NCBI RefSeq assembly: GCF_030013205.1
Contig: NZ_CP122648.1
Length of the DNA stretch: 64,000 nt
Source of the DNA: Escherichia coli
GTDB taxonomy: Bacteria; Pseudomonadota; Gammaproteobacteria; Enterobacterales; Enterobacteriaceae
Direction: 5' to 3' (one strand)
In this document: one piece after another, positions 35,604 to 53,526 of the stretch
Position numbering within the stretch: the stretch's first letter is position 1
How the letters are laid out: every line of letters starts with the position of its first letter
The notes under the pieces: generated by a model
Seen by the model: only the letters and a program-made list of their open reading frames with translations
Database searches by the model: none
What the model was told of the DNA's origin: nothing
Position numbers and translations under genes: made by a program

Positions 35604-36164
35604 TCAATCGGTAATAGCTGCTACAGTCGCTCTTGAAACGCCATATTGACGCGCTAACGCACTGATACTCAAACCGCTATTCTTTTTCTCTAAAATCTCT
35701 CTACGGGCTTCTGACGCGATTTTAGGAGGTCTGCCCAATTTCTTACCTTCGGCTTTTGCTCGTGATAGTCCCGCCTGAGTGCGCTCAATCAGCAGATCAC
35801 GCTCCATCTCCGCAACCGCGGCGAGCATAGATAATAGCAACTTCCCAGCGGCAGAAGTGAGATCTGTGTTACCAAGCTGGTGGACAAGAACCTTGATATT
35901 ACGGTCAGCCAGCGCCCTTACCGTTTGCAAGACGTCAATCGCATCACGCCCCAGACGATCAAGCTTCGCTACCACCAACGTTTCACCATCGCGGATTTTA
36001 TTGAGCATTTCAGAAAATGCTTTACGTTGCATTGCCGGAACCTTCCCGCTAACAACATCGGCAAACCAGTAATCAATTTGCCACCCAGCCTGCCCAAGCT
36101 CCAGCCGTTGGTTCTCAGTATCCTGCTGCGATGTCGAAACACGTCCGTAGCCAAAAGTTGCCAT
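35604..36164 (-). CDS. Serine recombinase (resolvase/invertase family)
   Basis: MATFGYGRVSTSQQDTENQRLEL...LVVAKLDRLGRD... has the catalytic Ser in GYGRVST and a C-terminal HTH (ISALARQYGVSRATV). The track ORF has a 23-codon upstream extension. Confidence 0.88.
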   Translation of the reverse strand: MATFGYGRVSTSQQDTENQRLELGQAGWQIDYWFADVVSGKVPAMQRKAFSEMLNKIRDGETLVVAKLDRLGRDAIDVLQTVRALADRNIKVLVHQLGNTDLTSAAGKLLLSMLAAVAEMERDLLIERTQAGLSRAKAEGKKLGRPPKIASEARREILEKKNSGLSISALARQYGVSRATVAAITD

Positions 36165-36186
36165 TGTTATCTCCCCATCTGACCCC

Positions 36187-36297
36187 TGCCAGAAAACGAG
36201 GCCAACATTAGGATGGCCTGCCAGAAAAGCCAAGGCTATTTTTCCAACAGTGTGAAAGCGTGCGATTGGGAGGTGCCAGAAAACGGTCGTTTGTTGG
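36187..36297. promoter_or_regulatory. res-like array: three TGCCAGAAAA-containing sites immediately upstream of the serine recombinase gene
   Basis: TGCCAGAAAA occurs at 36187, 36219 and 36274. The third copy sits in the imperfect palindrome CCAGAAAACG-GT-CGTTTGTTGG (36276-36297). Confidence 0.5.
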
Positions 36298-36356
36298 CGC
36301 TTAAAACGGATAAAGACATGTTAGGCTGAAACCATCACTTCATAAGGACAACCGAA

Positions 36357-36823
36357 ATGATTAAAGACGCGATTTTTCACCGTGCGGTCAATATCGCTAC
36401 TCGTTATCACGAGTCTGGGACGAATCAAAACCATATGCCCTTTTCATAGGGCTAAACCCTTCATACGCCGATGCTGAGAAGGATGATCGCACCTTGAGCC
36501 GCTGCATATCGTTTGCCAAAAGCAGGGGCTACGGTGGCGTATACATGGCCAACCTGTTCGCATTCGTTCACACCCAGCGACATGAAATGATGAAAGCGTC
36601 TGATCCCATTGGCAAAGATAACGATAGCCACTTGATACGTCTTGTTAGCGGTGCCGGACTGGTTGTCGCCGCATGGGGAAATGAAGGAAGACACCTCAAA
36701 CGCTCAACGACCGTCCGACAGCTATTGCCAGAGAGCACAATGTGCTTCGTCTTAAACGCTACAGGTGAGCCGAAGCACCCTTTGTATATGAAAAACGACA
36801 GTGTTCTCATACCTTTAGGTTAA
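36357..36823 (+). pseudogene. DUF1643 family gene with a frameshift in an A-run right after the start codon
   Basis: ATG ATT AAA GAC... goes out of frame. The +2 frame from 36365 reads RRDFSPCGQYRYSLSRVWDESKPYALFIGLNPSYADAEKDDRTLSRCISFAKSRGYGGVYMANLF..., a DUF1643-type N terminus as I recall it. One extra A in AAA (36363-36365) would restore MIKRRDFSPCGQYRYSL.... Confidence 0.6.
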
Positions 36824-37828
36824 CATCGATAACTGCGTTCAGAATATGAACGCAGCCATATGATATATATGACTTTTCTTTAAAATGATGGTGTGCTAGC
36901 TTCTCTCCTGACACCTACCTCATGCGGTAAACCGGTCCGGGTAGGTGGAGATCACCGCTGTTTAGCGGAAGACGTCAGGATGGGAACTCTGCGTAACGTT
37001 GATTGTGGTAGGTAGGGCGCGCAAGCGTTTGATGCAGCCAAGCAGAGGGTGAAAGTAGCTATCGGCGGATTCTTGAGTAGCTTCTTTTGCGCATAATGCA
37101 TCTTTCAAGAAAGGTCGTCACACCACGAGGAAGACTTGATCTTCATCTGGCAAGGGGAACCGAGCAACCTACAGGCTATCTTCTCAGATGGCCTTATGGT
37201 TGATATGTCCGGCTTCCCCCCCGAGGAAGGGTTTACATCTTAAAGAACAAGTTATGTTTTAACATTTTTAACAATTACACTTCTCTGCTGTTTGGTGTCT
37301 TATGGCGTTGCCGTCAAAAGTAAACCTGCCGTTTTTACCTCTCCTGCGTAACAACCAAATACGAACCAGAAGCTGCTAACGTTCAACGTGTTCGCGGTGT
37401 AAATGCAGCCAGATAAGTTGGGAGCGAAAAAGTGGATGCCCTAGGTTTGGAAGCGCCCCTCTCAGGCATAGCGTCCGAAAATTTCCACGGCGGCAGGCTT
37501 ATCCTTATAGAGCCAAACAGACTCAAAAGTTAAGAAGCGCGGTAAAGCTTAAAGCTCGCCCAGATTTCTCATTGATTGCTCGAACTCCGCTACGCTTGTT
37601 TCAACTGGCTTCGCCAGTCACTCTATGAGAGCGCCGCGAATTCTGCACCATGATTTCGACTACCTTCTTTAAAACACTCGCCAGAGAGCCTTACAGCGCG
37701 TTTGAACCGCATATCGCAGCTTTTGCTTACGGATGACTGTCTGATTAGCAGTAGCTTCATGGCCCAGTCCGGTTTACTTTATTGCTATCAACAAGGGAGC
37801 CGTCCAGAGGCGACGCGGAGATAATGCT
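36824..37828. other. About 1 kb with no ORF of 60 aa or more on either strand; either a structured RNA or a decayed gene
   Basis: The ORF track is empty here. Local helices include 36833-36855 (9-bp stem) and the nested 7+7-bp helix 36906-36919 / 36940-36946 + 36974-36980, which encloses the hairpin 36955-36968. Confidence 0.3.
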
Positions 37829-38161
37829 TTGAGAACCGTCGAGATACTGCAATACACCTTACGCAAAGGCAGCGGTGCCGCTTTTCACGCCATTATGCAG
37901 GAAATCAGTGTTCCCCTACACCAACGCCACGGGATCGATGTTGTTTCGTTTGGTAACTCTCTGCATGACCCGGACTGCTATTACCTGATTCGCGCCTTTG
38001 TCAGCCCTAAAAGCATGACTACGGTTCTCGACGCTTTTTACGCAAGCGATGACTGGCGCAGCGGCCCGCGCGAAGACATCATTGGCAACATAGAGGCCAG
38101 CATTAAAACAGTGATAAATCTACCATCAGAAAGCGTAGAAGGGCTGCGGGTGCAATCGTAG
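37829..38161 (+). CDS. NIPSNAP-like / dimeric alpha-beta barrel family protein
   Basis: 110-aa ORF with a TTG start 8 nt after GGAG. It reads MRTVEILQYTLRKGSGAAFHAIMQEISVPLHQRHGIDVVSFG...YYLIRAF.... Confidence 0.55.
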   Translation: MRTVEILQYTLRKGSGAAFHAIMQEISVPLHQRHGIDVVSFGNSLHDPDCYYLIRAFVSPKSMTTVLDAFYASDDWRSGPREDIIGNIEASIKTVINLPSESVEGLRVQS

Positions 38162-38293
38162 GTCATCAAGTTTCACCAAACGTGTTTTGAGCGTCTCCAA
38201 ATTCAGCACTATGAAATCCACCACCCTTAATAAAAAACGCGCCAGGAAGCGTCCCAGCGCATTCAAGCATCACTCAACTGAATAGTAACTGAT

Positions 38294-40204
38294 TCAACCT
38301 GTTTGTTTGCCACGCTTTCTTCGCAACGCATCTCTGACAGCATCCAGCCCGTCAGGAATGTTGAATTCCGCTATATCAGGTAACGAAAAATCAATTTTCT
38401 CCACGACTTCAATCATATGAATTGGTTTGAGGTCTTTGCTATATCGCACTTCCGTTTCAGTTTCGCCGCGCACATGCCCAAGTAGCTGCGCTCGTAATTC
38501 TGAGCTAACGCCCTTCTCCTTGAGCAAAGTCGAAACTGAGTGGCGAAAAGAATGGAAAGATTTGCTTCTGTTCCTCTCGAGTTTCAACCGCCCCGCAAGC
38601 AACGATTCATTGAACCATGCGGAAACTGGCCTACCATAGCCTTTTGTTTTATGTGGTTTAAGCTCCGGGAAGAGACGGGTATACCCTGCATCTTTTAAGG
38701 CGTTCACGTAGTCGATGAAACCGAGACTAATCAGCTTTGAATGGAGCGGAATCTTGCGGCGAGCATTAGCATTTTTGAGTTTCTTTCCGCTTTCATTATC
38801 GCTTTCAAGGTTCAAATAATAGACGCCGTCGTCTGCCAGAACATCACTCAGCAGTAACTGAGCGATTTCATTAACTCGCGCCCCCGTCATCAAGCCCAGC
38901 AAAGGTGCCCAATAGTTAAACGGGCAATATTGATGGAATCGCCCTTGCGCATTGCGTTCAACAGTTCCAGCCTCAAACCACGGTAACGAAAAAATCGCTT
39001 TAATTTCATGCGGTTCAAATATGTCAGTGTGATCCTGATCTCGCTCATCTTTATCATCGGATGGAAAAAAGTTTTCGCATGGCGATTTCAGTAGCTTACC
39101 GTCAGCAACAGCCCACTTCATTGCACCATAAATGCCGTTGATATACTTCCTAACGGATTCCTCAGTCATCAATTTATCGCCGCATTCTGCCGCTTTGGCG
39201 ATTAACTGATCCAGCGTTTTCACTCCATATTTAGCTTTGACTAAATTACGGTTTGCTGGGATCGTGCGCAGTTTGCTCTCATAAGCCCGGAGGAAATCGC
39301 GATCAAAATCTTCCAACTGAATGTCACCCATCGCTTCGATCATAAAGCTGAAATAGTTACGGATATCACTTATAGCCGACTCCGATACCTTGCCCTTGCG
39401 CCGATGCTTTAGATATTCAGAGCATAACCACGACAGATTCTTAGTGTAATACTTTCGATTAACATACTCGTTATCGATAGTAGGGGCAGGAGCGGCAAGA
39501 GGCACGGTAGGATGAACACTAGCGACTGGAGGCGTGGTCTTAGCCAGCCAATCAAGCCTTAGGCTTTCTGCATGGACTTTATTGATCAAAAGCGTATCGG
39601 GTTTAATTACCGGCCAACCGGAGGTGAAAAACCAACCGCCTTTAGCGTCGCTTCCGGCAGTTTTGAACACCGAAGCTTCTGAATAACCGTCGCTAATAAT
39701 GTTACGTAAATGTGCTGGTTGCGCAGTGAGTTGCAGATAGCCTTTAGCAACCCCCTCGATACCCTTCTCTTCGCCATAATTAAGAACGTAACTGCCATCA
39801 AGCGGGTCTAGCTCAGCCTCAGAGAGCGCTGCAACATAAAAGCCAGCCTGCCCCGTCGCCAGCCAGAATACGGGCAGATTACGGTTCATCACCGCCTGTA
39901 TTAATTGCGCAACAGGCAACTCAACTGACTGAGCAAAGTTAGAAAGCGAGATCATACCCTCACCAGCAAGCAGCGGGGCGCAGTCACTTAAAGTTCGATA
40001 ATCCAATTGTTCATACTCTTGTAAGGTCTGATACCAGACCGCCAACAGGAGCGCGGACTTCTGCTTTGCTTCATGAAGATCGTGAGTGCCTGTTGAAGTG
40101 TGAATCTCACACTGTCCTGCGTATCGACGAAAACGTTGGGGAATGCTAATGCGGACAACATAAATGCCGCTGGTTCGACGATAGAGTTTATATCGCTGAG
40201 ACAT
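38294..40204 (-). CDS. Tyrosine integrase with a long N-terminal extension, adjacent to leuX
   Basis: The ATG at 40204 gives MSQRYKLYRRTSGIYVVRISIPQRFRRYAGQCEIHTSTG... (636 aa); the track calls a TTG at 40246 (650 aa). The C-terminal catalytic signatures are GARVNEIAQL, HSFRHSVSTLL, LLGHVRG and VRYSK. Confidence 0.85.
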   Translation of the reverse strand: MSQRYKLYRRTSGIYVVRISIPQRFRRYAGQCEIHTSTGTHDLHEAKQKSALLLAVWYQTLQEYEQLDYRTLSDCAPLLAGEGMISLSNFAQSVELPVAQLIQAVMNRNLPVFWLATGQAGFYVAALSEAELDPLDGSYVLNYGEEKGIEGVAKGYLQLTAQPAHLRNIISDGYSEASVFKTAGSDAKGGWFFTSGWPVIKPDTLLINKVHAESLRLDWLAKTTPPVASVHPTVPLAAPAPTIDNEYVNRKYYTKNLSWLCSEYLKHRRKGKVSESAISDIRNYFSFMIEAMGDIQLEDFDRDFLRAYESKLRTIPANRNLVKAKYGVKTLDQLIAKAAECGDKLMTEESVRKYINGIYGAMKWAVADGKLLKSPCENFFPSDDKDERDQDHTDIFEPHEIKAIFSLPWFEAGTVERNAQGRFHQYCPFNYWAPLLGLMTGARVNEIAQLLLSDVLADDGVYYLNLESDNESGKKLKNANARRKIPLHSKLISLGFIDYVNALKDAGYTRLFPELKPHKTKGYGRPVSAWFNESLLAGRLKLERNRSKSFHSFRHSVSTLLKEKGVSSELRAQLLGHVRGETETEVRYSKDLKPIHMIEVVEKIDFSLPDIAEFNIPDGLDAVRDALRRKRGKQTG

Positions 40205-40294: not shown

Positions 40295-40379
40295 TGGTGC
40301 CGAAGGCCGGACTCGAACCGGCACGTATTTCTACGGTTGATTTTGAATCAACTGCGTCTACCGATTTCGCCACTTCGGC
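40295..40379 (-). tRNA. leuX: tRNA-Leu (anticodon CAA)
   Basis: The reverse complement is GCCGAAGTGGCGAAATCGGTAGACGCAGTTGATTCAAAATCAACCGTAGAAATACGTGCCGGTTCGAGTCCGGCCTTCGGCACCA. It is 85 nt with a class II long variable arm, the anticodon loop TTCAAAA and an encoded CCA. Confidence 0.95.
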
Positions 40380-45790: not shown

Positions 45791-47305
<1,515 letters not shown>

Positions 47306-47306
47306 T

Positions 47307-47628
<322 letters not shown>

Positions 47629-53499: not shown

Positions 53500-53526
53500 T
53501 TGAGGTGTTAGCCACAGGAGGGATCT

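Follow-up and report, generated by a model that had tools for sequence, protein, structure and literature searches.

A kilobase without open reading frames in a tRNA-integrating island of Escherichia coli is a composite of backbone modules, one of them a conserved and putatively functional non-coding block

What occupies a kilobase of Escherichia coli DNA in which neither strand holds an open reading frame (ORF) of 60 amino acids? The question is raised by positions 36824–37828 of a 64,000-nucleotide stretch of contig NZ_CP122648.1 (the window, meaning the whole stretch that was analysed), which lie between a DUF1643 gene and a NIPSNAP-like gene and for which an original prediction, made from the letters alone, had offered three readings: a large structured non-coding RNA, a long regulatory leader or a heavily decayed gene. 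The premise is sound. The longest complete ORF on either strand spans 49 amino acids, the base composition is roughly balanced as described (48% GC), and the segment is the longest in the window without an ORF of ≥60 amino acids, the runner-up measuring 703 nt. The lack of ORFs had been called mildly unusual, and this is apt: 13% of mononucleotide shuffles are likewise without an ORF of ≥60 amino acids, and in 2.4% the longest ORF reaches ≤49 amino acids. The segment is a spacer composed of several backbone pieces of a genomic island that integrates at a tRNA gene, and it is not a single large structured RNA. Deletion debris (37549–37727) makes up about a quarter, about a sixth is a conserved block that we term B1, and about a third to a half is module A, which we read tentatively, at just short of even confidence, as a sequence-constrained, putatively functional non-coding transcript.

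The segment was compared with 57 related loci drawn from E. coli genomes, from one genome per species and from metagenomes. All belong to one island family, built from a serine recombinase, variable genes, conserved non-coding blocks and a 650-aa integrase beside a tRNA gene, and alignment breakpoints recur across the loci at 36855, ~37352, 37509/37593 and 37597. At the level of sequence alignment, 36824–37828 is thus shown to be a mosaic of island backbone modules, each with its own distribution among sister islands. The features of the segment are as follows.

36833–36855, no strand assigned: H0, a palindrome or hairpin (CTGCGTTCA-GAATA-TGAACGCAG) of 9 perfect base pairs with a minimum free energy (MFE) z-score of −6.4
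36860–36898, plus strand: promoter-like region, with ATGATA (36860–36865), a 15-nt spacer and TAAAAT (36881–36886)
about 36899–37351: module A, non-coding, occupying the slot of a Rep-like gene
36906–36912 and 36974–36980, plus strand: P1, outer helix TCCTGAC/GTCAGGA, present in the window and not conserved
36913–37250, plus strand: core of module A, conserved, non-coding and transcribed in strain O157 Sakai
36913–36946, plus strand: P2, a hairpin with the 7-bp stem ACCTACC/GGTAGGT and the 20-nt loop TCATGCGGTAAACCGGTCCG
36955–36968, plus strand: P3, the hairpin CCGCT-GTTT-AGCGG, whose CCGC/GCGG part never varies
37251–37351, no strand assigned: tail of module A, AT-rich and faster-evolving, with identity down to ~70–95%, at the right end of the Rep-like slot
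37352–37516, no strand assigned: B1, common to the whole island family and present twice in loci L014 and L029
37549–37590, minus strand: stump of a 70-aa gene, its last 13 codons (AEFEQSMRNLGEL) and stop; the gene is intact in relatives
37591–37727, no strand assigned: module C, the upstream block of the 70-aa gene in relatives, including a 28-codon plus-strand ORF at 37641–37727
37728–37828, plus strand: NIPSNAP upstream region, conserved together with the NIPSNAP-like gene

The case for module A begins with the rate at which its core changes. Pairwise divergence of the core (36913–37250) amounts to 0.3–4.7%, while synonymous divergence in the adjacent DUF1643 gene reaches 0.35–0.42 and the 3′ flank (37251–37520) diverges by 0.09–0.17. 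The core therefore resembles the non-synonymous rate of DUF1643 (0.6–4.3%) and is unlike its synonymous rate (up to 42%); it is shown to change about 10 times more slowly than the synonymous sites of the neighbouring gene. Module A accordingly does not evolve at the neutral rate of a decayed gene, a result for which recombination could also be responsible. Further evidence comes from the loci L032/L038, L044, L046 and L048, which have different upstream genes and a 5′ flank (36856–36912) that is homologous but heavily diverged, and which nevertheless carry 0–2 substitutions in the core. A diverged flank next to a kept core fits purifying selection better than the edge of a recombination tract.

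What is constrained does not appear to be a protein. The 35 locus copies of module A share no conserved ORF, and 1-nt insertions or deletions are tolerated at ~36950, 37152, 37165 and 37216. A six-frame search of module A against 5.8 billion protein clusters, with the six frames joined into one artificial query, returned nothing. Two small protein genes proposed in the past were considered and rejected: 8 of 22 sequence types carry a 1-nt insertion that disrupts the frame of XECs453, and that of the former ECs5247 is split in the window by the indel at 37165. Module A was also examined as a relic of the 338-, 306- or 171-aa neighbour genes, to which it has no similarity by tblastn or by the family hidden Markov model. 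Heavy decay, the third of the three readings, therefore holds for 37549–37590, the 13-codon stump, and fails for module A, which contains no recognisable relic of any gene. A protein-like stretch near 37640 had been thought to favour decay; it corresponds to a 28-codon ATG ORF at 37641, which is not evidence of coding because relatives of its block differ by non-triplet indels, so that the frame is not kept.

Module A is transcribed, at least in one strain. In O157:H7 Sakai, Hücker et al. (2017; PMC5597208) listed the ORF XECs453 (peptide MLASLLTPTSCGKPVRVGGDHRCLAEDVRMGTLRNVDCGR), whose position on the Sakai minus strand corresponds to window positions 36893–37012 on the plus strand. Its RNA-seq signal, in reads per kilobase per million mapped reads, was 52.9, 117.2 and 132.0 in three conditions, and its ribosome-footprint signal was 35.2, 9.6 and 2.0 in the same three (PMC5597208); the resulting ribosome coverage ratios of 0.79, 0.08 and 0.02 are low in two of the three. 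The authors found no protein homologue, and the verdict of their classifier was ‘pseudo’ (PMC5597208). The table from RNase E cross-linking, ligation and sequencing of hybrids (CLASH) of Waters et al. (2017; PMC5286369) contains one chimeric read, the first half of which is window 37014–37049 on the plus strand, joined to SibE. This single read shows that module A RNA exists, and it does not show an interaction. Thus, despite the lack of a large fold, a plus-strand non-coding RNA covers 36893–37049 in O157 Sakai, and the core is constrained. Concerning the chimera itself, SibE is an antitoxin small RNA (sRNA) of O157 Sakai; the predicted energy of the hybrid is −31.5 kcal/mol, and CAGCCAAGCAGAGGG pairs with SibE CCCTCTGATTGGCTG at 14 of 15 positions, again in one read.

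The position of module A gives a second line of evidence. It fills exactly the slot that a 338-aa Rep-like gene occupies in sister islands, and homology with the Rep-type islands resumes at ~37352–37374. On its other side, 36833–36898 is homologous by alignment to the region directly upstream of the 338-aa gene, where the promoter-like boxes read TTGATA-N16-TAAAAT (L005) or TTGATA-N16-TAAAAC (L004, L007, L014 and L029). The conserved boxes of 36833–36898 comprise TGATATATA (36862–36870), TTTT, TAAAA and TGTGCTA (36892–36898), and the boxes TGATATATA and TGTGCTA are invariant in the diverged variants L032, L044, L046 and L048. We take 36860–36898 to be a putative promoter. A promoter consensus scan did not report the ATGATA-N15-TAAAAT site of the window because its 15-nt spacer lies outside the 16–18 range of the scan.

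For the 338-aa protein, 80 homologues are found in enterobacteria, Pseudomonas and Burkholderia, none of them named or assigned to a Pfam family. Its AlphaFold model (predicted local distance difference test score, 86) finds RepSTK1 and RepDE (4cij, 4cwc) as the best Foldseek matches, with E = 1e-6, a probability of 1.0 and template-modelling scores of 0.35–0.50, and Y201, K203 and R217–E221 are invariant in the family. The model supports a Rep_trans-like fold, that of rolling-circle initiators; the fold is a prediction and does not imply activity. Searches of PDB sequences with the 338-aa protein, and with the 70-aa protein whose stump lies at 37549–37590, gave no match. Proteins of this kind, with 305–338 aa and without a Pfam or NCBIfam family, are encoded at L005:3811–4827, L004:3801–4817, L007:3826–4839 and L008:3695–4621.

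All the helices pointed out in the original prediction exist, but they do not add up to a large fold. The stem at 36833–36855 is an exact 9-bp helix with a 5-nt loop, and the coordinates given for TCCTGAC/ACCTACC (36906–36919), GGTAGGT (36940–36946), CCGCT-GTTT-AGCGG (36955–36968) and GTCAGGA (36974–36980) are right. Two further stems are also present, one base away from the positions reported for them: GAAGA-CTTGA-TCTTC at 37130–37144, and CATCTG/CAGATG with arms at 37144–37149 and 37185–37190. The three-way-junction-like fold drawn from P1, P2 and P3 can be formed in the window, but its outer helix P1 is not conserved and is broken without compensation in every diverged copy. Across the 14 distinct sequences, six of the seven P1 pairs depart by mismatch only and no compensatory change occurs, because the 5′ arm varies while the 3′ arm is invariant.

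Both-sided changes of a base pair occur only in H0, P2 and P3 and affect four pairs in all among the 14 sequences. Of the 35 locus copies, 34 share the same 20-nt P2 loop, and L012 differs from it by one base. In the P2 stem two pairs are compensated, both in L032 (ATCTATC/GATAGAT), L050 has one mismatch, and in L044 and L048 one pair changes from C–G to U–G, which is tolerated on the plus strand only. The closing pair of P3 changes from T–A to A–T in L048 and to T·T in three sequence types, and one further pair changes from G–C to G–U in L013. One-sided G–U changes, which read as C–A on the other strand, give a weak hint that pairing may matter in a plus-strand RNA. In H0, 3 of 14 sequence types have the outer pair turned from C–G into G–C, two types have one internal pair disrupted, and the stem is lengthened by A–T pairs in L032 and L044. 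H0 is kept in every island variant, including those without DUF1643 and those with the Rep-like gene. A T-run was looked for after H0 on either strand and none is present, so H0 is not a typical intrinsic terminator. A diverged second copy (CTGCGTTCGGAATTTGAAACCAG) lies several kilobases upstream of the main one at L031:2949–2971 and L036:4621–4643, so that the family may be reusing H0 as a regulatory or terminator-like signal.

Folding energies confine structure to the same places. The 86-nt fold of 36900–36985 has an MFE z-score of −2.7 on the plus strand and −2.8 on the minus strand, and a local hairpin region within the core (37125–37235) scores −2.8, with both strands close to −2.7, while 36985–37125 and 37180–37860 fold no better than shuffled sequence. 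Covariation, which had been proposed as a check, gives some support to H0, P2 and P3 and none to P1 or to the core of module A. The proposed search with Rfam and Infernal found no family in the segment at gathering score or at E ≤ 10; over 36300–38300 the latter threshold gave two chance-level matches of 15–16 bits. The idea of a large structured non-coding RNA is not borne out: covariation is limited to three short hairpins, most of the segment has an MFE z-score of at least 0, and there is no compensated consensus fold over most of the length.

If module A is a functional transcript, it would be ~350 nt long and would start near 36893 from the slot promoter, ATGATA-N15-TAAAAT. Its 5′ end would carry two short conserved hairpins, P2 with the invariant 20-nt loop and P3, and it would act mainly by its sequence and not through a large fold. 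One possible role would be to bind another RNA or a factor of the island or the host, the island having dispensed with an initiator gene of its own.

Several observations weigh against this account. Mapped onto the predicted fold, the changes in the core are 0 compensatory, 6 wobble-compatible and 9 pair-breaking; RNA structure does not explain the conservation of the core, because pair-breaking changes are at least as common as compatible ones. Rfam 15 matches in the whole window at gathering score are limited to tRNA, Ysr276 and naRNA4, all outside the segment. No terminator-like site is present in 36824–37828 on either strand, and the supplements of an O157 study of Hfq by cross-linking and analysis of cDNA (Hfq-CRAC) hold no entry for ECs5246–5248 or for coordinates beginning 53522–53524, which is negative evidence only. 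Cappable-seq start-site tables of EDL933, in a truncated form, list nothing for 5.400–5.401 Mb. Module A thus has neither the U-tail terminator nor the Hfq-bound recovery of an Hfq-dependent trans-acting sRNA. Its expression is modest, and the RNA-seq signal could be read-through from DUF1643, since H0 lacks a T-tail. The promoter-like site has a 15-nt spacer, and the −10 element is poor in L032, L044, L046 and L048. Finally, the near-uniform identity of the core could come from repeated recombination between islands: in the pair L003–L012 the core (0.042) is not clearly slower than synonymous sites (0.068), and because this pair shows no excess conservation, homogenisation is a possible cause.

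That last point leads to the view that module A has no function and is filler that replaced the initiator gene, its copies being similar through recent spread and homogenising recombination. All copies lie in Enterobacteriaceae-type contexts with cores that are ≥95% identical, the family is a mosaic with recurring recombination breakpoints, and the L003–L012 divergence, the indifference of core substitutions to the predicted fold and the tolerance of 1-nt indels are all as this view would have them. We nonetheless consider it rather unlikely. In most pairs the DUF1643 synonymous sites and 37251–37520 diverge 3–15 times more than the core; in the four independent variants with a diverged 5′ flank, conservation starts sharply at P2, which looks more like a change in constraint than like a breakpoint; stem changes in P2, P3 and H0 are compensated; and no protein relic is detectable. 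The main rival explanation keeps the function and moves it to the DNA. Module A would be a cis-acting site, origin-like or transfer-origin-like, kept after loss of a Rep_trans-like initiator and served in trans by the initiator of a sister island; origins of the pT181 type combine a Rep-binding repeat with a neighbouring hairpin that is nicked in its loop, and by this analogy P2 would expose a nick site in its invariant loop while P3 would serve as the binding repeat beside it. Module A does occupy the very slot of a gene with a predicted Rep_trans fold, as in the initiators 4cij and 4cwc, and starts with a hairpin whose stem covaries and whose loop is nearly invariant, followed 8 nt on by a second GC hairpin. 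Some E. coli genomes also hold two islands of the family (at most two matches per genome), and compensated inverted repeats fit DNA cruciforms or symmetric binding sites as well; for a palindrome, compensatory changes are equally expected at a DNA binding site, which also counts against an RNA. We judge a cis-acting site unlikely all the same, though worth keeping in mind. The P2 loop motif, searched with up to 4 mismatches, was not found in any Rep-carrying island examined, so that these islands do not use the P2 loop as their own origin, and they lack the P2 hairpin. No Rep-like ORF exists in the 64-kb window, which therefore offers no cognate initiator. Origins usually show patchy conservation, unlike the uniform 340 nt seen here, and B1, universal in the family, is a better origin candidate. 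The module A loop has 20 nt, module A is transcribed, and the single-sided changes in P2 and P3 give G–U on the plus strand and C–A on the other, which fits RNA pairing. Among 72,556 plasmids and 50,697 phage records there is no sequence similar to module A, and no copy is present in IMG/VR.

The remaining two ideas seem to us improbable. A long 5′ leader or riboswitch-like element for the next plus-strand gene, here NIPSNAP-like, would account for a transcript on the NIPSNAP strand with local hairpins near its presumed 5′ end, and B1 is followed within ~90 nt by a same-strand 190-aa gene in L030, L032 and L033. The leader proposed originally is not supported, however, because islands differ in what lies 3′ of the conserved block, where a gene may also be missing or point the other way: NIPSNAP, the 190-aa gene with DUF4468, a minus-strand 70-aa gene, minus-strand cargo or the 3′ end of the integrase. 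In addition, ~580 nt of other modules, including the minus-strand stump, separate the core from NIPSNAP, there is no terminator/anti-terminator pair and no Rfam match, and in islands that lack module A, NIPSNAP is still preceded by a conserved block of its own. The other idea, a long shot, makes module A a new kind of ~350-nt island RNA that stands in for the initiator gene; its islands would have abandoned their Rep_trans-like gene and would employ the RNA to exploit, or to interfere with, Rep-carrying sister islands. The P2 loop stretch GCGGTAAACCGG (36924–36935) is a perfect complement of a stretch within the Rep-like gene of L014 (7427–7438) and L029 (7049–7060), with one mismatch in L004, L005 and L007 and two in L031. 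The site encodes F-R-F-T-A, has a BLAST E value of 0.18 and is not unusually conserved on the gene side. Plasmid copy-control RNAs use loop-to-mRNA contacts, and by that analogy the putative P2 contact would allow pairing with the initiator mRNA. Elsewhere in the window, base-pairing targets of module A longer than 12 nt were not found, which is chance level.

Compared with systems already described, the element falls outside every known family, but its kind, that of non-coding backbone elements or transcripts in genomic islands, is familiar. The sRNAs of islands and prophages in enterohaemorrhagic E. coli O157 (EcOnc RNAs, Esr41, AsxR/AgvB) are likewise non-coding transcripts of horizontally acquired DNA from unannotated intergenic regions of the same strains, detected in the same RNA-seq and CLASH data sets as module A. 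They differ in being 50–150 nt long, Hfq-bound and equipped with intrinsic terminators, whereas the module A block measures ~340 nt, has neither a terminator nor an Hfq-CRAC entry, and has no target pairing within the window. Esr41 was considered as the identity of the element and rejected, as it lies in another island, SpLE1/OI-43. In integrative islands and satellites such as P4-like elements, conserved backbone segments flank cargo hotspots, and these flanks are usually genes. H0, B1 and C similarly bracket sites of differing genes, many of them defence-type; here, in contrast, the flanks are non-coding, and one slot is filled by a constrained non-coding block.

Downstream of module A, B1 contains invariant motifs in a 20-sequence alignment: CCTAG; G-C-A-T / G-C / T within GCAT(A/T)GC(G/A)T; and TCCTTAT. 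A small minus-strand gene was considered here, since the peptide SIR..KFSDAMPERGASKPR looked conserved, and was rejected. B1 is not coding, because the ratio of non-synonymous to synonymous polymorphism is 0.6–1.3 in all six frames and 5 of 20 copies contain stops or frameshifts; there is no 3-base periodicity. RNAalifold gave no consensus structure for it. B1 is a conserved non-coding block and, in the simplest view, a putative protein-binding DNA region.

The 70-aa gene that follows belongs to phrog_27283, of unknown function, and is encoded between B and C, on the minus strand, in L002, L005, L006, L011, L012 and L029. The window and L004 are without ~230 bp here, the deletion junction falling between 37590 and 37591. 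By its similarity to the intact gene, 37549–37590 is a pseudogene remnant, a similarity that module A does not share with any gene. In L002, L005, L007, L011, L014 and L029–L031, B and C are separated by inserted variable cargo. Matches to L002, L004, L008, L030 and L031 run from 37597–37733 into the NIPSNAP-like gene.

Upstream of NIPSNAP, CCGGTTTAC (37763–37790), the complement of part of the P2 loop, recurs, and CCGGTTTAC[TTTAT]TGCTATCAAC is a 19-nt match, interrupted by 5 nt, to the Rep-like gene site that is complementary to the P2 loop. The NIPSNAP upstream region was considered as a relic of the initiator 3′ end and rejected, there being only this broken 19-nt match and no profile match. 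The inverted repeat 36927–36941 / 37763–37777 is complementary at 13 of 15 positions, about chance level alone. A second C-like block, at L029:5616–6122, L030:5944–6122, L031:6003–6101 and L033:3546–3692, abuts the final 29 codons of DUF1643, at a distance of no more than 2 nt. This joint occurs in four islands (five copies counting H141), at the match of window position 36736, and in L029 the copy is preceded by a B1-like block; judged by its recurrence in the alignments, it is a recurrent recombination joint. The 10-mer GCCAGAGAGC is found in the window at both 36727–36736 and 37680–37689.

The genes of the island around the segment are the following.

35604–36233, minus strand: small serine recombinase, an island gene
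36357–36823, plus strand: DUF1643 gene, frameshifted here, the left flank of the segment
37829–38161, plus strand: NIPSNAP-like gene, the right flank of the segment
38294–40246, minus strand: tyrosine integrase of 650 aa, next to the tRNA gene

The host element is an island at the tRNA-Leu gene leuX (40298–40379). The same island in O157:H7 Sakai is the ‘phage-like element SpLE5’ (SpLE5/OI-172), and its counterpart in EDL933 lies at 5.396–5.406 Mb. DUF1643 carries a frameshift near codon 7 in the window (the Nissle type) and is intact, with 155 aa, in O157 Sakai, and also intact in L009–L013 and L007; by tblastn the Sakai protein matches the window in two frames, and RefSeq flags the Nissle 1917 gene as frameshifted. 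In none of the genomes sampled does RefSeq place a feature within the gap, and the sole past annotation in the block is an old small ORF, since withdrawn.

The island is widespread. Positions 36700–37900 show 100% identity to many genomes, among them Nissle 1917 and ATCC 25922, and are matched in 673 of 5,426 complete E. coli genomes; the module A block is carried by 595 of them (~11%), including Nissle 1917, ATCC 25922, strain 042 and the O157:H7 lineage. Plasmid matches are limited to the B/C/NIPSNAP part and the DUF1643 end, on pCP53-92k. Among the variable genes, defence types are frequent (AbiJ, AIPR, reverse transcriptase, TIGR04141 and KAP-like NTPase); a literature search for this island family as a defence hotspot yielded nothing specific. 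One locus, L013 (CACSKA010000005.1), comes from a contig labelled Chryseobacterium sp. 18061 and is an enterobacterial island with 91% identity over 1.16 kb, so that the assembly is likely contaminated or mislabelled.

Should module A prove functional, as an RNA or as a DNA site, it would belong to the machinery that maintains a widespread family of tRNA-integrated islands shuttling defence genes, and such islands would be able to swap a rolling-circle-type initiator gene for a non-coding element. What the analysis yields directly is the dissection of an ‘empty’ kilobase into named modules, the identification of one true gene remnant, and a link, through a predicted structure, between the 338-aa backbone protein of the family, which has no Pfam family, and the Rep_trans fold.

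The window holds a second stretch without an ORF of ≥60 amino acids, the 703 nt at 32782–33484, in the same island between AbiJ-NTD4 and helix-turn-helix genes; it has no similarity to module A, and in Nissle 1917 the corresponding ~32448–33484 is unannotated. Outside the island, Rfam matches at gathering score on the minus strand identify Ysr276 (175 bits) and two adjacent naRNA4 elements (82 and 73 bits), at window positions 46352–46546 and 47380–47551.

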